Of a DNA stretch of 64,000 nucleotides, positions 34,195 to 43,539 are shown piece by piece. The stretch is from IMG/VR virus record IMGVR_UViG_2879905790_000001, positions 132,982 to 196,981 of that record, one strand, 5' to 3'. The DNA comes from a virus (lineage: Duplodnaviria; Caudoviricetes). A program made the translations under genes and the position numbers. Each line of letters begins with the position of its first letter. Within the stretch, counting starts at the first letter, position 1. The notes under the pieces were generated by a model. The model did not search any database. It was given only the letters and a program-made list of their open reading frames with translations, and was not told the origin of the DNA.

Positions 34195-34268
34195 TGGCAC
34201 AGGATGAAAGAATCGAACTCTCATAAGTGGGTTTGGAAGCCACCGTCTTGCCATTAGACGAACCCTGC
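34195..34268 (-). tRNA. trnW: tRNA-Trp (CCA)
   Basis: Cloverleaf GCAGGGT/ATCCTGT, D arm GTCT/AGAC, loop TTCCAAA, T loop TTCGATT, G73 and encoded CCA. C31:C39 mismatch. Confidence 0.85.
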
Positions 34269-34465: not shown

Positions 34466-34759
34466 TTACATTCTTAACTTTTTAAAATATTCTTTTTTAA
34501 TTTTATCTCTTTTTATCCACTGTTTAATCGAATCTCCATAATTAAACCATTCATTTTTTACTCTTTCTAAACTAAAATAATTATGCAGACTGTATTCATA
34601 ATCCATATTGCAATTATCTATTTTATGTATTAATTCTAAATTACAATTAGAAGTTTCTAATTGTTTTATTCTTCTTTTCAGATTCCTACTAAATCCAATT
34701 TTAACGAGATTAGCCGATATATCTAATATAAAATAGACTGTTCCATTTTTATTATTCAT
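34466..34759 (-). CDS. GIY-YIG / T5orf172-family protein
   Basis: VYFI...VKIGFSRNLKRRIKQL...E..LH..F...RV..EWF. Confidence 0.85.
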   Translation of the reverse strand: MNNKNGTVYFILDISANLVKIGFSRNLKRRIKQLETSNCNLELIHKIDNCNMDYEYSLHNYFSLERVKNEWFNYGDSIKQWIKRDKIKKEYFKKLRM

Positions 34760-34935
34760 ACAGACTTCCTTTTCTTTTATGTTTATTTTTATCAAGATAA
34801 AATTGTTCAAAATTATATGTATTTATTTTGTCATATTCATCTAATAACTCTATAATTTCTTCTTTAGAAATGTTATTTAATATTTTCTTAAAAGAACTTG
34901 AATACAAACCGACTATCTCCTTTTAAAAATATAAT

Positions 34936-35612: not shown

Positions 35613-36856
35613 CTACATTAAGTCTGCTATTTCAGCTATTTTACTTCTATAAATATTATTTAATTCTACTTCCCCATAGAAATTTTGTCCTCTAAATACT
35701 TCAGACATTCTTTTCATTCCATTATTAGCTCCTGAAAAATTAATATCATCAACTTGTGTATTATAATCTCCATCAATAATACAAATACAATCTTGTCCTA
35801 TTCTTTGAAGTGCTAGTTTCATCATATCTATACTCATATTTTGTGATTCGGTTATATAGATACCTGCTTTCATTCCAGTTGTATCATATCCTCTAATATC
35901 ACTCATTGGAAGTAATACAATTTTATTTTGTTGAAGTAATAACTCCAATGCTAATTTATCTCCTAATTTACTACATAAAAAATTTCCTATGTTTGAATCT
36001 AGTAATTTTTCGTCTTTTGTACCAGGATAATATCCTAATTTTGATGCTCCTCTTGTAGCAATTGGATTAGTAAATATAATAATTTTTTCTAATTTTCCTT
36101 TTTCAAGTTGGCTAAATAGATAGCCCATAGATAAATAACTCTTACCACTTCCTGCTTTTCCTTTTACCATCGTTATTTGGTTGGTTTGAAAACTATCCAA
36201 TACACACATTTGATATCTATCTAATGCTTTTAAACTTCCTAACATATTAGATTTCATATTTTTATATTCTGTAGGCATTAATTTTTCACCATTCCACTTG
36301 TAAGAATCAACAGTATATCCATTTGCATCTTTGACAATTAAATATTCATTTTCTAATAATCCATATGTATTTTTATTTAAGCCATATTGGTAAAAGTTTG
36401 CTAACTCTTCATCAGTAAACTGTTTTTCAACATATCCTCTATAATTATCTTCATTTTTATCATTTAATGTTTCTGTTTTTAAATCAAATATTTTATTAGC
36501 TATATTCCAACAACAAATATCATTGGTTATAAATAATATTTGTTTCTTATTTTCAATTTCTAGTTGTTTGGCACAAGCTATTATCAAATTGTCATTACTT
36601 GTGTCTAAATTTAATTCTTCTAATAATTCATAATGCTTGGTTTGAACGATAATACATTCATATTTATCAATATTATCTTTTAAAAATTTGGATACTTGTC
36701 TTGCTTGATATCGAACTTCTGCATCTTTATTTTTACTTACTTTTATATGTTCTAATTCATGTAATACCATTGAAGAGGTATAAAAAAATCAATTGTATCT
36801 AATTTATCATACAACTTTAGTAAGGCATTGGTATCATAGAACTTTATTTTATCCAT
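35613..36856 (-). CDS. phoH: PIN-PhoH protein, frameshifted in a T7 run at 36782-36788
   Basis: Upstream frame MDKIKFYDTNALL (PIN motif, with RBS) joins YTSSMVLHELE if one T is added. GKAGSGKS, LGYYPG, IRG, ESQN, GDYNTQVD PhoH motifs. Confidence 0.85.
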
Positions 36857-36960
36857 TTTAATACTCCCTCTCTTTGAAGAGGTGGAAAGAATATTAATCT
36901 TCCCACGTACAAAGCTTTTATTATGTATATTTACATATTTAATTTTAAAATTGTTTTATA

Positions 36961-37248
36961 TTAAAGTAATTTGTCTTTTAGCCCTTTACCTATTTTTACT
37001 CTTACACCTTTATGTGCAGGAATAACTTTCTTACCTAATTCTGGCTGTCTAGGATTAGCTAAACACTCTCTTTCTGCAACTTCTTTGGTTTCTATTGTCA
37101 TAAATCCTGTTAATGCAACTTTATCTCCGTTTTCTAAAGCTTTTCCTACTACTTCTTCAAATGCTTTTAATGCTAATTCACATTGTTTTTGATTTAATTC
37201 TCCTTTAGTTTCTTCCACCATTGCTTTAATTGTTTCTTTTTTGTTCAT
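36961..37248 (-). CDS. hup: HU-like DNA-binding protein
   Basis: MNKKE..., GDKVALTGF, ANP, IPA, GKGLKD. Confidence 0.9.
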   Translation of the reverse strand: MNKKETIKAMVEETKGELNQKQCELALKAFEEVVGKALENGDKVALTGFMTIETKEVAERECLANPRQPELGKKVIPAHKGVRVKIGKGLKDKLL

Positions 37249-37361
37249 AATTTTGTTTCCTCCTTAAAATATCTCTTTTTAAAATTTTATTTTTTACTTT
37301 ACTCATTTAAGAGTTATTAATATTTAAAAATTTAGCTAAGTTTTTAAATTTATAATAATAG

Positions 37362-37663
37362 TGTAAGCTAAACAGCCTTGTGGACAACATAAAGTTAAAC
37401 TAGATTAATACTTATAACCAAACTCAAGGATTTTATCGAAATTTATACTTTAAATCCTCAACTTTAATAAATAAGAATTTTGAATCTTTATCTTTAAATT
37501 TTGATATTTAATACTTGAACTTTTATCTCAATATGTATTATTGTGTAAACACAGCAATACCCCAATTTTGCTTGATTTATTAATAATCAAAATCTTATAT
37601 TATCTTTATTAACCCAAAAGATATTAAGGGAATCTAGTATTCAATGTTTTCATTTAACTTACA
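37362..37663 (-). ncRNA. Candidate structured ncRNA with an internal heptamer-repeat track
   Basis: Closing stem TGTAAGTTAAAT/GTTTAGCTTACA. Further pairings ACTAGATT/AATCTAGT and CCTTG/CAAGG. 7-nt periodic AAAGTTC-like units at 37438-37523. Confidence 0.6.
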
Positions 37664-37681
37664 AATTACTTTATATTAAAT

Positions 37682-38314
37682 TTAATCTGGTATTTCTATA
37701 GTATTTCTTGAATTAGATTCACTTAATACAAAATCTACATTCATCTCGAAATCTTCTATCTTTTCTTCCAACTCTTTTACTAATTTATTTAACTTTAATG
37801 GGTCTATTACTTCATATCCATTTTGTTCTCTATATTCTTCAGAGAACTTTTTCATTCCATCAGTTTTTTTACCATCAGAATTCATCATAGCTTCTAATTG
37901 TCTATCTAAATTTAATTCCATTCTATCATTAGCTTCTGTAACCTTATGATTAATTCTTGCCAATTGTCTTTTCATAGTATCTAATAAATTTCTTTCATAT
38001 TCTATTGAAGATTTCCTTTCTATAGCATCAGCTACAGTCATTTTTTCTCCAGCCACATCAACTATAGTTTTTGCATTAGATTCTACTATTTTAGATTTTA
38101 TTATTCTTCTTCTATTTATTAAATCAGTTATACTTTGATGGTCTGATTGAACTATACTTTCAAATTTTTCTATTGTATATGTATTATTTATTTTACTTGA
38201 TGATTTCTTTTTATCAGCTATAAAAACCACATTGCCTATCTTATTATTTATTCTTGAATCTAACAATTTCAACTCCGCTAATGCTCTAGTTATTGATATT
38301 TTCACAAACAACAC
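37682..38314 (-). CDS. Coiled-coil protein, DIP1984 (septicolysin-annotated)-like family
   Basis: ITRALAELKLLD.RI, I.ESNA.T, MTVADAI, IDP, D..LSESN..T motifs. Family assignment is from memory. Confidence 0.7.
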   Translation of the reverse strand: MLFVKISITRALAELKLLDSRINNKIGNVVFIADKKKSSSKINNTYTIEKFESIVQSDHQSITDLINRRRIIKSKIVESNAKTIVDVAGEKMTVADAIERKSSIEYERNLLDTMKRQLARINHKVTEANDRMELNLDRQLEAMMNSDGKKTDGMKKFSEEYREQNGYEVIDPLKLNKLVKELEEKIEDFEMNVDFVLSESNSRNTIEIPD

Positions 38315-38493
38315 TCCTTAAAAATAATCTTTAAATTTAAACTTTTATATAATTATTTTTTATAAAATAACGAATTTATTTACTTGTCCCTTCTAAAAAA
38401 TAGGAGGGAGTGGGTAGGTTTTCTACCCATATCAATGAAAAAATTTTATCTATTTTATTTTAGTGTCTTTCCAACATTAAATTATTTTATATT

Positions 38494-38832
38494 AGCACCA
38501 GACCGTATTCTCGGCTAGACCATACTAATTTCTACTTATACTTCGTAGATTATAACTGCACTCAGTGAGCATTGTTAAGAGGCTTAGTGGGTTCTATTTT
38601 AATTGGAGCTATACTCCGTTGTTTATATTTTTCACAGTTTTATCTGCAATAGGAATGAGTTTTAAGTCTTCATCCCGACCATTTTTCAATGTTATTAATG
38701 TAGTGCTTGTAGGCAAAGGCTTACCTTACAATAACATTATTAATATTTCACTCCCCTTATACTGCCTACTGCTGTATAAGGATTATAGCTACAATTTTTT
38801 AGTAGTACCAAGGGAGTCATTCATACTCCTTC
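38494..38832 (-). ncRNA. Candidate multi-stem structured RNA
   Basis: GC-elevated, no credible ORF, at least seven hairpins (e.g. CCTTATAC/GTATAAGG, AATGTTATT/AATAACATT, GGAGT/ACTCC, TCTAC/GTAGA). Confidence 0.5.
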
Positions 38833-39144
38833 ATATTTGTCTTATATTACTATCTCAATCATCTGATTAAGATTTGTTTGTCAAATTGTTTTATTTATAA
38901 ATTCTTGATTTTATTGTATTTTACAGAGGATTGAGAAATATCAATCCTCTGGCTGATGTTTTTTACATTGTTTCAGCAAACAATTTTAACTAGTTTTCAC
39001 TTATATATTCATATATATAAGAAGAGGAAAATATTGATTTATTATCGCATCTCCCCTCCTATTAAAGCACGACTATGTAAATCTCTATAATCGTTGATAT
39101 CACTCGCTTAGAGGGTGATTTTTTTATTCAGAATTTGTCTTATT

Positions 39145-42100
39145 TTATTTAATCTTATCTGTTTGAAACATATTTAACAAACCTTTGCCGTATGTTTCAA
39201 ACAATATCTCTAAAGTTAAACTTTCTAGATCACTTTTTTTATTAACCTTATAATAAGTTTTATTAGTTTTTTTATTTTTTACTTTTCTTATACTTGTTAA
39301 ACACTCACTTAAAATATGGTACATTTCACTTTTTTTTATTTTTATTTTTCTAATTTTTTTTATACAATCGTTTTTTACGTATCTTATTTTATTTCTTTTT
39401 TCTGTGATATTTAAATTTCCATTAGTTCTATATCCTTTTATTTTTATATATGTATTTTTTAATAATTTAATTACTTGTTTAACTGCCTTATCATCATAAT
39501 CATTGGTATTTCTTTTAATTAATTGTATAACCTGTATAGTGCCGTTTTTTTTACTGTTTTTAATACCATCTAATTCTTTTTGTAGCCAATTCATAGGTGT
39601 GTCAATATTGTAATCATATATTTTTTCTTCCCATTCTTTTTGTATTTTATTATTTTCTTTTAATAATTTTATTAAATTTTTATCATTTTTATTAACTTCA
39701 TTAATTTTGATGTTTTTAGTTTTAGCATATTCTGCAATAGTATTTTTATCTAACTCATTTTTGTGTTTTTTATTAATTTTTCTCTTTTTCTTTTGTGCCT
39801 TGGTATCTCCGATGTATTTAAAGAAATAGGGCTTGACTCTCCTTGTGTCATATAGTCTTAGTTCTTTATATTTTAATGAAATTTGATTTTTGATTAATTT
39901 TACATCTTCCTCTTTTTCAAGATTTATATCTTCTATTTGTGATTTTAATTGATTGATTTTATTTAATGTTTTATTATTATTTTCTGAATTTAATTCTTTT
40001 TTTAATTTTCTTATCTCCTCATTTATTGGTTTTCTTTTCTCTTTTCTATATTTTTTTACTTGAATTTCAGTTTTCTTTAAATTATTTTTAATTGATTTTA
40101 TTTCTTCATTTATTTCTTCAACCTTTTTTTTATCAACTATTGGCAAACCAACTTTCATTTTTTCTAATTCTTTTGGTACATTGAGGTCTTTAAATTGTTT
40201 TTTTGCCTTATCTATTTCAACACATGATATACTACTTAATCTACTAGATTTGTCATACCATTTTTTTAAATCTTCTTCTGTGGCTTTATTGTTGTATTTT
40301 AAATGATTTAAAAGAGAATTTATTTCTTGAGATAAGTTAATCACACTTCCTATGTAATTTTGACTTATAATATGGTCTATATCACTCATATTCTCTCCTG
40401 TCATTTCACAATTATTTTTACCTGTATTTTCTACACAATTTACTGGTATAGGGGTATTACTCCAATCTATTTTTTCACAAGCATCAACAATTATTTTATT
40501 ATTCGTTAATAAAAGTGTATCAGAATCCATATCAGCACCTTGTAAAATAGTTAAAATAGGATACTTAATACTGTTTATTATTACTATGTTATCTGTGCAA
40601 TTCATATACTTACTCAATGTGTTATTTTTTTTATTAATCAAATTTGCTATATTGCCAGTTACAACATGAGGGTTTCTAAAACCAACTACCTTTTCATCAT
40701 TTTTAAATCTAGGACAATAAATTTCATTTTTTGTAAGAGTTATAGAATCTCCTTTAAATTGACCAAAAACAGCATAGAGCATTTCTATAGGATTACTACA
40801 AATAGTACAATAATCTCCTTCTACTCTTATTTTACCTCTCCTTAAATCTTTTATATAAGAATTTATAAAATTTCTTCTATAATCTTTAAATACTTGTGTG
40901 TTTTGAAACAGTGGATTTATTTTAACTAATTGAATAAAAGCATCGCATACATCAATTCTTCTCCCTATTTTTAGCTCTTCATCATCAATAATAATATCTT
41001 CAATTTCAGTCGTACTCTCTATATCCTGATTAACTTCTTGCATAAAAAAGTCTAAATTATCTTTTAATTTTTCTACGTATTTAATTTCATGTTTAACAAG
41101 ATTTTTAATATCTTGTTTAGTAAGTGGAATTGTGTTTACCATTTGATAACTTAATCTATTATATTTGCCATTATCAAATTTTGATGGTTTCTCATATTTA
41201 CAAACTGAAAATATTTTTCCACAATTGTCTTTATAATATTTTAACCATGCATTTTGCTTTAAATGTTTATACCCTTCTTTTTTGAGAACCTTTTTGTTAA
41301 ATTTAGCTAATTTAATACTAGAAGGTGTTGTGATTAATTTAATATCTTTAACTTTAATTTTATTATGGCATATATCTTCTACTTCATAGGTTTCATAATC
41401 CTTATTATTTTCCACACACCAATCTTTAATAAATTGTTGTATATTAGTATTAAAAGCACAACTTTTTGTTAATCTATTTCTTAATAAAGCCATTCCTTTT
41501 CCTTTTATAAGTTCATTTTCATTAAATATTGATACATCTAAAAGTGCTTCTCCGTCCCGAATACTATTACATTCTTTTATTGTTTCTGTTTCGGTTATTA
41601 ATTCTTTGTTCTTTAAATATGTTTTACTCATTCTCCAAGGAAATTCACTTTCAAAATCTTTTATCACTAATATACTATTAGGGTCTATTTCTATAGTTCC
41701 TATTACACTTGATAATGGTAAACTTTCGTATGCTCTTACACTAGCTACATCTTCTTTTTCTTCAAATTCTAATCCCATTCTAGCCCATAATAAACATTCA
41801 TTTTTAATATTATCCAATAAAAATAAATTTTCACCTTGTCTTGCTTTTCCACTACTTCTTTTCCAATTTGTTAATTTATTTCCACTGAATACAAAGCCGT
41901 TTTTATATGTCCAATCTCGTAAATCTTTAGTTGTTAATTCTGTATTTTTTTCTTTATATTTGTTATTATATTTTATATTAATGACATCTAAGGTATATAA
42001 CTTACCATTGATTTTTTTAATATTTATATTATTGACTAATACTTCATTTTGTATTAATTCATGCGAAGAATCCAATTTACCATTTAATAGTTTGTCTAAA

Positions 42101-42213
42101 TATTTTTCTTGCACTTTATAATCTCCATTTTCAAGATTTTCTTTATATATCCAACAAGCTTCAATATTAGGTATGTAAATACCATCTTTTAAGTCAATCT
42201 TATCATTTGTCAA
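39145..42213 (-). CDS. Single-subunit YonO-like / RdRP-like DNA-dependent RNA polymerase
   Basis: KRSSGKARQG, DG, LLRN, FRNPH and catalytic GADMDSD, IDKAK motifs. Lies upstream of the late operon, as yonO does in SPbeta. Confidence 0.85.
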   Translation of the reverse strand: MTNDKIDLKDGIYIPNIEACWIYKENLENGDYKVQEKYLDKLLNGKLDSSHELIQNEVLVNNINIKKINGKLYTLDVINIKYNNKYKEKNTELTTKDLRDWTYKNGFVFSGNKLTNWKRSSGKARQGENLFLLDNIKNECLLWARMGLEFEEKEDVASVRAYESLPLSSVIGTIEIDPNSILVIKDFESEFPWRMSKTYLKNKELITETETIKECNSIRDGEALLDVSIFNENELIKGKGMALLRNRLTKSCAFNTNIQQFIKDWCVENNKDYETYEVEDICHNKIKVKDIKLITTPSSIKLAKFNKKVLKKEGYKHLKQNAWLKYYKDNCGKIFSVCKYEKPSKFDNGKYNRLSYQMVNTIPLTKQDIKNLVKHEIKYVEKLKDNLDFFMQEVNQDIESTTEIEDIIIDDEELKIGRRIDVCDAFIQLVKINPLFQNTQVFKDYRRNFINSYIKDLRRGKIRVEGDYCTICSNPIEMLYAVFGQFKGDSITLTKNEIYCPRFKNDEKVVGFRNPHVVTGNIANLINKKNNTLSKYMNCTDNIVIINSIKYPILTILQGADMDSDTLLLTNNKIIVDACEKIDWSNTPIPVNCVENTGKNNCEMTGENMSDIDHIISQNYIGSVINLSQEINSLLNHLKYNNKATEEDLKKWYDKSSRLSSISCVEIDKAKKQFKDLNVPKELEKMKVGLPIVDKKKVEEINEEIKSIKNNLKKTEIQVKKYRKEKRKPINEEIRKLKKELNSENNNKTLNKINQLKSQIEDINLEKEEDVKLIKNQISLKYKELRLYDTRRVKPYFFKYIGDTKAQKKKRKINKKHKNELDKNTIAEYAKTKNIKINEVNKNDKNLIKLLKENNKIQKEWEEKIYDYNIDTPMNWLQKELDGIKNSKKNGTIQVIQLIKRNTNDYDDKAVKQVIKLLKNTYIKIKGYRTNGNLNITEKRNKIRYVKNDCIKKIRKIKIKKSEMYHILSECLTSIRKVKNKKTNKTYYKVNKKSDLESLTLEILFETYGKGLLNMFQTDKIK

Positions 42214-42955: not shown

Positions 42956-43186
42956 TTAATCTAGTATATTCTCCCATTCTTTTATTTCATTATTCCAATA
43001 TTCTTCTTCGCTTTCAAAATCTACTATATCAATTTCAGAATCATATTCATTATCATATAACTTTCTTTGTTCTTCGATCTTATGTAATTTTTTTTCATAT
43101 TCTTCCCAAGCTTGTTTATTACCCTTGTAATCATAAATATTCTTATATTCAGCTACAACTTCTTTTATATCATCACACATACACAT
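42956..43186 (-). CDS. Small acidic hypothetical protein
   Basis: Coupled to the upstream ORF. Confidence 0.6.
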   Translation of the reverse strand: MCMCDDIKEVVAEYKNIYDYKGNKQAWEEYEKKLHKIEEQRKLYDNEYDSEIDIVDFESEEEYWNNEIKEWENILD

Positions 43187-43539
43187 TATCTTGCTGCCCC
43201 TCCTTCTTCAATTAAATCTATAACTATTTGAATTTCATCTATTGTATCTGAGTATGTCCACAATACATCATCTAAACACTTATCACCTACAAATACACGC
43301 CACAGAGAGCCACCTAAATCGTCTTTATATTCCAATAGACCTTTACTATTAAATATTTCTTTTCTGCCATCTAACAATCTTATATGTACATTTTCAAATA
43401 AATTTTTGTTAATTATATCTGTTATGTAATGATTTTTTAAATCTTCTTTCTTAGATTCTAATAATCTGTAATTACATAGTTTAGAATCTCCTTTAAACTC
43501 CCCTATTACTTGTCCTTTAACTTTTAGTAATCTTTTCAT
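43186..43539 (-). CDS. Hypothetical protein
   Basis: ORF with RBS. Confidence 0.65.
   Translation of the reverse strand: MKRLLKVKGQVIGEFKGDSKLCNYRLLESKKEDLKNHYITDIINKNLFENVHIRLLDGRKEIFNSKGLLEYKDDLGGSLWRVFVGDKCLDDVLWTYSDTIDEIQIVIDLIEEGGAAR

Follow-up and report, generated by a model that had tools for sequence, protein, structure and literature searches.

What lies between a gene for a predicted helical protein and the HU/IHF-like gene that follows it on the minus strand of a large phage genome? The window analysed here is the last 64 kb (64,000 nucleotides [nt]; G+C 25%) of a 196,981-bp IMG/VR record, IMGVR_UViG_2879905790_000001, which is 99% complete. In this window an open reading frame (ORF) of 207 codons (37682-38305) is followed by a spacer of 433 nt (37249-37681; G+C 20%), in which the ORF list holds no frame of at least 40 amino acids on either strand, and then by the HU/IHF-like gene (36961-37248). 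An earlier reading of the letters of this DNA (the original prediction) had proposed that the spacer encodes a structured RNA with a 7-nt repeat track, transcribed together with the gene. We find that the segment 37362-37663 (minus strand) is a member of a widespread class of pseudoknotted RNAs, 267-399 nt long and without an Rfam entry, and that, in large phages and prophages, the RNA always stands immediately 3' of a T5.085/phrog_1491-type gene, to which it is tightly linked in both directions. We regard it as very nearly certain that the class is real.

A covarying, pseudoknotted RNA fold

Two alignments are used throughout: A1, of 36 protein homologues, and A2, a MAFFT alignment of 52 homologous RNAs. 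The gene and the parts of the RNA are as follows, with the evidence for each in brackets; P1, P2, P3 and P5 are helices, and S1 and S2 are the two stems of a local pseudoknot.

37682-38305 (-): gene for the 207-residue helical protein, phrog_1491, homologue of T5.085 (ORF list, PHROG match)
37362-37663 (-): whole structured RNA, from the 5' strand to the 3' strand of P1, 302 nt (folding and the 52-sequence alignment)
37652-37663 (-): P1 5' strand, TGTAAGTTAAAT (pairing in A2; 12 of 12 pairs changed on both sides)
37362-37373 (-): P1 3' strand, GTTTAGCTTACA, directly 3' of the conserved GGCTG at 37373-37377 (covariation)
37646-37651 (-): conserved junction GAAAAC (consensus CGAAAAC), directly 3' of the P1 5' strand (G14, A15 and A16 near-invariant in A2)
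37644-37648 (-): P2 5' strand, AACAT, partner of ATGTT at 37386-37390 (minimum free energy [MFE] fold and A2)
37386-37390 (-): P2 3' strand, ATGTT (MFE fold and A2)
37631-37638 (-): P3 5' strand, ACTAGATT (pairing in A2; 8 of 8 pairs changed on both sides)
37399-37406 (-): P3 3' strand, AATCTAGT, within the P5 loop and hence forming a pseudoknot (covariation)
37601-37630 (-): H-type pseudoknot (S1 by pairing in A2, S2 by per-sequence search)
37628-37630 with 37613-37615 (-): S1, CCC with GGG (pairing in A2)
37617-37623 with 37601-37607 (-): S2, TATCTTT with AAAGATA (per-sequence search)
37530-37600 (-): variable region with two local hairpins, 37572-37590 and 37535-37560 (length and sequence differ among homologues)
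37475-37524 (-): heptamer track 1, seven phased units, consensus N-N-U-Y-A-R-N, of the GUUCAAA type (A2)
37466-37474 (-): U-rich spacer, TTATTTATT, A2 consensus TTCTTnnTnnTT (A2)
37440-37465 (-): second A-rich track, about 3-4 looser repeats (A2)
37428-37439 (-): conserved motif TCGATAAAATCC, running into P5 (A233, A234 and C236 invariant; the motif retrieved true members in a pattern scan)
37425-37429 (-): P5 5' strand, CCTTG (pairing in A2; 4 of 5 pairs changed on both sides)
37376-37380 (-): P5 3' strand, CAAGG (pairing in A2)

All the elements named in the original prediction are thus present in the window where it placed them. Its two local hairpins are among them, although the stretch that holds them differs in length and sequence among the homologues. 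The gene was described there as one of 210 residues starting at 38314; the ORF is present, but because the homologues are 206-213 residues long the start is most likely the GTG at 38305 (207 residues). Its stop codon, TAA, occupies 37682-37684, and the 5' strand of P1 begins 18 nt past it.

Folded by itself, the window RNA reaches an MFE of -56.1 kcal/mol on the minus strand (z-score -2.59); the z-score of the plus strand is -2.84, and this single-sequence folding signal is moderate and does not tell the strands apart. Across the homologues, the 13-nt P1 segment before CGAAAAC pairs with a 13-nt segment after GGCTG, 267-399 nt downstream; of the 71 non-redundant regions compared, 52 form at least 12 of these 13 pairs although their stem sequences diverge widely, and a T5-like or Pseudomonas-type group has, judged by eye, the same stem with a bulge. 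Pairs were then counted on A2, using a structure derived from the window sequence, and over the whole structure 81.5% of cells were paired (P1 99.2%, P3 85.3%, P5 97.7%, S1 79%), as compared to 55.1% in shuffles, none of which attained 81.5% in 500 trials, and to 33-49% in slid registers. Changes on both sides were found for 38 of the 40 pairs. A2 holds near-duplicate rows (e.g., L003/L005/L067 and L018/L020/L021/L029). For P2 the pairing was 59% in the window register and 67-92% in a neighbouring one, and columns 20-618 covary. At least five contiguous pairs of S2 were present in 34 of 46 RNAs, as compared to 15% of chimeric controls, the misses being mostly alignment slips (e.g., L008 and L011, in which the stems were seen by eye).

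RNAalifold on the MAFFT alignment yielded P1 and P5 alone, and P2, P3 and the pseudoknot came from the supplied structure or from the per-sequence search; when all column pairs were scanned, P1, P3, P5 and part of P2 ranked at the top. A local hairpin of the 3' domain, P4, was tried and left out of the model, having one strongly covarying pair (columns 594-612) with weak neighbours.

The original prediction had closed its element with a 12-bp stem and had drawn the P3 and P5 helices across each other as a possible pseudoknot. The closing stem is P1, and both crossing helices covary among the 52 homologues; because P3 and P5 cross, that pseudoknot is real. The strand can be assigned from P1 itself. 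In the window its 12 pairs include two G.U pairs, and G.U occurs in 18 of 52 RNAs at columns 7-640 and in 28 of 52 at columns 8-639. A G.U pair would be A.C on the other strand, and the pairing is therefore one of the gene's strand only, in RNA and not in DNA. The proposal of a structured, pseudoknotted non-coding RNA on the strand of the gene is thus borne out, and the homologues, which the original prediction had suggested collecting, conserve both the covarying stems and the 7-nt track.

Nor could the RNA be assigned to a named family, as had been surmised. At gathering scores, Rfam 15 matched only a Fusobacteriales-1 RNA and a tRNA in the whole window, both elsewhere, and only tRNAs and one c-di-GMP-I riboswitch in 15 homologous loci; at E ≤10, a search of 36800-39200 gave no match inside 37249-37681. 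ARAGORN found no transfer-messenger RNA (tmRNA) in the window, and no tmRNA model of Rfam matched at the RNA. Our literature search found no description of this RNA or of T5.085, and the class seems undescribed. Fremin et al. 2023 (PMC10690425) list 10,006 unnamed candidate RNAs from IMG/VR, and parts of this RNA could be among them. A search of public sequencing runs listed no RNA run, and the best DNA runs shared only 0.38 and 0.36 of words. An RNase P-like or tmRNA-like core, mimicry of a T-loop or anticodon loop by the heptamers, an array of RNase E sites and a template for reverse transcription were all dropped as candidates, with neither a test nor a fit.

Linkage to the upstream gene and occurrence in phages

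The linkage was approached from both partners. A search for protein homologues gave 542 at E ≤0.001 among 1109 candidates, from which the 36 sequences of A1 were aligned. A scan of viral contigs with the single protein gave no matches; the scan based on the alignment kept 80 loci, nearly all with a long ORF-free gap behind the gene. An RNA profile built from the track and the 3' domain matched 78 of these 80 loci, missing L055 and L069 (in L069 the features were seen by eye), and 80 of 80 loci from bacterial genomes, which include Bacillus, Lysinibacillus, Brevibacillus, Psychrobacillus, Clostridium and Peptostreptococcaceae. Each locus that the profile matched had a single match, on the gene's strand and immediately 3' of the gene; the rest of the roughly 6.6 kb gave none. 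In the reverse test, in which viral contigs were scanned for the RNA motif, 20 of the 80 listed loci hold the RNA, and in 19 of these 20 the gene is directly upstream; the twentieth is a cut locus of 1262 bases whose contig has the gene. In the remaining 60 both RNA and gene are absent, and these loci are chance matches of a loose pattern.

P1 begins 5-56 nt past the stop codon (median 13 nt), too short a distance for a promoter to fit in between. With so short a gap the RNA is almost certainly co-transcribed with the upstream gene, as the original prediction had it; most likely it forms the 3' portion of the gene's message, which would end at a terminator or at a tRNA that follows. A terminator-like hairpin lies 3' of the RNA in 9 of 52 sequences, and a tRNA gene starts within 600 nt past the stop codon in 18 of the 80 viral loci. 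Within 3 kb, tRNA genes are found in 36 of the 80, all on the same strand.

In some members a tRNA or tRNA-like sequence lies inside the variable region that P1 encloses (L072, about 54 nt past the stop codon; L081; L039; L073; and Erwinia phage Ea35-70), and ARAGORN reports a tRNA there in L072. In Ea35-70 (L286), about 100-170 nt past the stop codon, a T-arm-like stretch precedes a D-arm-like stretch, which could represent a permuted order. If processed, the tRNA-bearing RNAs would be two pieces joined by long-range helices.

By tblastn the protein is encoded in 739 deposited phage records, among them T5-like, rV5-like, Bacillus, Vibrio, Pseudomonas, Klebsiella, Erwinia and Lactococcus phages and others. 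In T5 it is T5.085, which is labelled 'tail fiber protein', lies in the early region near tRNA genes and has an unannotated gap behind it. The T5 RNA occupies about 43142-43495 (minus strand) of NC_005859, where the profile gave its sole match in 24 kb (E 4.7e-11), and it has P1, both pseudoknot stems and P5. The RNA is also present, and not annotated as RNA, in Spc35 and in Pseudomonas phage phiPsa347. Bacillus phage JBP901 carries it, unannotated, with 15 tRNA genes before it, and in E. coli phage 4MG the unannotated RNA is directly followed by tRNA-Thr. In Lactococcus phage PMBT69 a misc_feature 'similar to hypothetical protein' overlaps the gap that holds the RNA. For the jumbo Erwinia phage Ea35-70 the profile E value is only 0.14, yet P1 and the motifs are present, again not annotated as RNA. 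The pair of gene and RNA thus occurs in phages of both Gram-positive and Gram-negative hosts, and the genes downstream of it differ among the annotated phages.

The label 'tail fiber protein', which stands in PHROG and on many of the homologues deposited in GenBank, is probably wrong and looks like a propagated error; the neighbours of the T5 gene are early genes (exonuclease, RNase H, nucleotide metabolism) and not tail genes.

The heptamer track, the protein and the surrounding locus

Track 1 could be aligned in all 52 RNAs of A2, and the 7-nt period that the original prediction had seen in the window is conserved in them. U is invariant or nearly so at window-RNA positions 147, 154, 161, 168, 175, 182 and 189, and so is A at positions 149, 156, 163, 170, 177 and 184. 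There are usually six to seven phased units, with an occasional unit of 8 nt, and they are closed by GUUCUU and the U-rich spacer; chains of U-N-A-R at steps of 6-8 nt most commonly have a length of 7 (15 of 52; range 2-8). No covarying partner was found for any track column among all column pairs of A2, and for this reason we infer that the track is single-stranded. Pairing of track 1 with track 2 was considered and rejected, as only about 4 of 7 positions could pair. Tandem Repeats Finder did not report the track in the window, and blastn with the window spacer matched it in more than 30 loci, at the same distance behind the gene and with about 70-85% identity; the neighbouring proteins at these loci are only about 45% identical.

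The protein matches phrog_1491 (E 4.3e-63, residues 5-208 on positions 4-209 of 211), and searches of Pfam, NCBIfam and PDB sequences gave no match. AlphaFold predicts long helical hairpins and four short strands (predicted local distance difference test score 90.4). The best fold match of this model is 3kdq, an uncharacterised protein of Corynebacterium diphtheriae that we take to be DIP1984 (Foldseek E 7.4e-3, probability 0.99, TM-scores 0.37/0.47); in VIA it has a Z of 11.2, which helical models can reach without kinship, with a root-mean-square deviation of 7.9 and 151/152 aligned. The description of the gene product as DIP1984-like is therefore supported, and tentatively, by the fold only: the DIP1984 model of NCBIfam, NF038048 (curated cut-off 70 bits), did not match this protein at E ≤0.01, and it matched 4 of the 36 homologues weakly (best E 0.03), all below the family cut-off. 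The phage protein is also about 55 residues longer than 3kdq. Fold matches in the viral structure library BFVD were all to an 'uncharacterized protein', and those in the ESM Atlas were to unnamed viral clusters, with PF20935 as a lead (16% of one cluster's members, score 0.88). A search for longer forms found no fused homologues, which is weak evidence.

The conserved residues of the protein cluster at 1-20, 58-108 and 186-203, with only five conserved positions in 109-185, so that the middle helices are variable. The conserved residues include the basic R7, K13, R18, R65/66, K70, R97 and K98. Three motifs are shared by homologues from Gram-positive and Gram-negative phages: N-terminal ITRAL..ELK..L..RI, central R..IK..I..SNA.T...MTVAEAIERK.SI and C-terminal VDF.LSESNA.

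In Brevibacillus fortis (L283, about 2030-2090) a T-arm-like stretch, GGGTTCAAATCCC, lies directly behind a DIP1984-family gene, perhaps a piece of a tRNA or tmRNA on the border of an island.

Several other features of the window and of its host may be recorded. Upstream of the 207-residue gene there is an ORF-poor gap of 830 nt (38315-39144), with four terminator-like hairpins on the plus strand as compared to 0.6 expected and a weak match to abiF-RNA at 38559-38589 (minus strand; 25.7 bits, gathering score 37, E 0.11); this gap may hold a further RNA. Beyond it, 39145-42213 (minus strand) is an ORF of 1022 amino acids that matches phrog_8308 (function unknown; E 2.8e-83), lacks a Pfam match and carries GADMDSD, a D-x-D-x-D motif. 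The motif is suggestive of YonO, the single-subunit RNA polymerase of SPbeta, and this ORF with the HU-like gene nearby may resemble the yonO-yonN pair. Two genes downstream of the module, 35613-36770 (minus strand) encodes a fusion of a PIN domain with a PhoH-like ATPase (PF13638, PF02562; phrog_2765). About 3 kb downstream, on the module's strand, is a tRNA-Trp gene (34195-34268, minus strand), adjoined by a gene for a small GIY-YIG/T5orf172-type protein (34466-34810, minus strand). The Fusobacteriales-1 match (13971-14090, minus strand; 106 bits, gathering score 52.1) lies inside the virus record. Among named relatives the closest belong to Clostridium, one of them a homologue of the protein with 87% identity, encoded on a contig of 209 kb that bears the label C. 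botulinum; the virus host is therefore probably a Clostridium, although the Fusobacteriales-1 match points elsewhere.

What the pair may do

The reading that we favour, tentatively and at a little under an even chance, is a new phage RNA-protein particle in which the protein assembles on the heptamer run. The compact pseudoknotted core would hold this run out as a single-stranded ruler, and several copies of the upstream protein would line up along it, roughly one to each heptamer, through their conserved basic end (the N-terminal, central and C-terminal motifs); the particle, and not either part alone, would be the active agent, and its setting would be the early gene block of these phages, with its many tRNA genes. 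That the protein may bind the heptamers is a plausible proposal. HutP and TRAP are ring-shaped oligomers that bind phased RNA triplets, and as in their targets, the U-Y-A core of this RNA recurs at fixed spacing, partnerless, in two blocks with a spacer; by analogy, the fixed-spacing repeat suggests one protein subunit per repeat. The protein differs from HutP and TRAP in lying outside both families (no Pfam match) and in its predicted helical fold, and the RNA differs from their targets, which are 5' leaders, in standing behind its gene and in being part of a large fold with pseudoknots. Because the downstream genes differ among the annotated phages, the RNA is not an attenuator. A fuller version of the particle, possible though on the whole doubtful, would place it in hundreds of large phages (T5, Bacillus, Clostridium, Vibrio, Pseudomonas and jumbo Erwinia phages), with the DIP1984-fold protein polymerising on about seven phased U-Y-A sites and the whole acting, early in infection, on host tRNA or translation or on a defence aimed at it. 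The tRNA genes that constantly accompany the module are the sole clue to its function.

A number of points weigh against an assembly of the protein on the heptamers. Its only fold match is an uncharacterised helical protein, at a Z (11.2) within the no-kinship range for helical models; no recognised RNA-binding domain was found in the Pfam and NCBIfam searches; and the adjacency of its conserved residues in space is something that we infer from predicted secondary structure. A bona fide DIP1984-family gene of Brevibacillus (191.7 bits) has no such RNA behind it, and on this one case the RNA therefore goes with the phage subfamily and not with the whole fold. The range of 2-8 in chain length, together with the units of 8 nt, means that no fixed stoichiometry is demonstrated. 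Nor is the track marked out as unpaired by thermodynamic folding: its mean unpaired probability is 0.42, as compared to 0.37 elsewhere, and it is the more open part in only 33 of 52 RNAs. Finally, because of the near-duplicate rows in A2, the cell counts given for the fold overstate the number of independent events.

Of the other explanations, the one to which we give most credit, while thinking it unlikely, is that the RNA serves as decoy, sponge or scaffold and that its target is a host factor with an affinity for short, single-stranded units rich in A and U (a cold-shock or oligonucleotide-binding-fold protein, Rho, a ribonuclease or an enzyme that handles tRNA); the upstream protein would then be a helper or would merely be encoded on one transcript with the RNA. 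A U-N-A-A/G heptamer consensus that is near-identical in phages of Firmicutes and Proteobacteria would fit such a universal host target, and so would the position of the module among or beside tRNA genes (the 36 of 80 loci with a same-strand tRNA gene within 3 kb), but a decoy leaves unexplained why the RNA is never apart from this gene, at 5-56 nt, across distant phages. Cold-shock proteins bind about 7 nt each, a point that would favour this explanation. The CsrB and RsmZ sponges are likewise non-coding RNAs with many copies of a short protein-binding motif (putative here); in contrast to them, this RNA has no GGA in loops and has phased heptamers on one strand, and its candidate partner is encoded next to it instead of being a global host regulator. 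Next in probability, and rather improbable, is an RNA that acts alone, as a self-assembling ornate RNA, a ribozyme or a further stable RNA of the tRNA cluster, linked to the gene through a shared promoter. The annotation of T5 lists eight stable RNAs of this region whose function is unknown, a tRNA gene starts right behind the RNA in the 18 of 80 loci noted above, and some members have tRNA-like sequence in the variable region. The T5 stable RNAs (RNAI, RNAIII, RNAX and others) resemble this one in being non-coding and in their early, tRNA-rich location, but the T5 copy at 43142-43495 (minus strand), in the gap after T5.085, is absent from the annotated set. GOLLD and ROOL, large phage-borne RNAs, are also found near tRNA genes; they share with this RNA a phage or prophage origin, complex folds and a function that is unknown, whereas this RNA is smaller, lacks an Rfam match and has one protein gene as its obligate partner. 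A promoter in common would not account for the constancy of order, strand and a gap of at most 56 nt in 158 of 160 loci, and a long, phased, non-covarying track resembles a binding platform more than a catalytic core.

The start of the RNA a median of 13 nt past the stop codon and the terminator-like hairpins behind it in 9 of 52 sequences would also suit a cis-acting 3' untranslated element, which might shield the mRNA from 3' exonucleases or serve as an operator for autoregulation by the protein. We consider this improbable as well, and place it just after the RNA acting alone, since an element of about 300 nt that has two pseudoknots and a phased track of 50 nt would exceed what stabilisers or operators usually need. 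The suggestion in the original prediction of an RNA antitoxin fared worse. A repetitive RNA beside a small protein gene in a mobile element does recall the type III toxin-antitoxin systems (ToxIN, CptIN, TenpIN), whose repeats are about 34-40 nt long and stand upstream of the toxin gene, with a terminator between; here, the units are of 7 nt and the RNA is behind the gene, 18 nt from its stop codon, with no terminator between them. The predicted fold is helical and DIP1984-like, with no nuclease match among the listed structures and no Pfam match, although kinship with ToxN/AbiQ is not thereby excluded. The PADLOC match is marginal (PDC-S32, E 0.0014), and the pair is also present in strictly lytic phages such as T5. 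A type III-like pair, with the repeat RNA neutralising the protein, is thus very improbable. We give least credence of all, and very little, to an element acting at the DNA level (iterons, an origin, a packaging site or a protein-binding site), for which the similar folding z-scores on both strands and the HU-like gene next to the RNA in the window might be cited: the helices pair through G.U, which is possible on one strand only, an HU-like gene was found in only 12 of the 160 loci, and the track keeps a fixed place inside a covarying fold.

The finding would add a new, well-supported class of structured RNA with an obligate protein partner, which is now labelled 'hypothetical' or 'tail fiber protein', and even if its function proves modest, the annotation of large phages gains a new RNA gene. 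T5 and the E. coli phage 4MG both carry the pair, which can therefore be studied at once in E. coli K-12. Phased heptamers in a rigid pseudoknotted frame are an unusual design, and if the RNA is indeed a ruler for protein assembly, it would be a new example of an RNA that dictates how many subunits a complex contains. That the module constantly lies in early gene blocks rich in tRNA genes points to a hitherto unrecognised step in taking over the host or in countering its defences.

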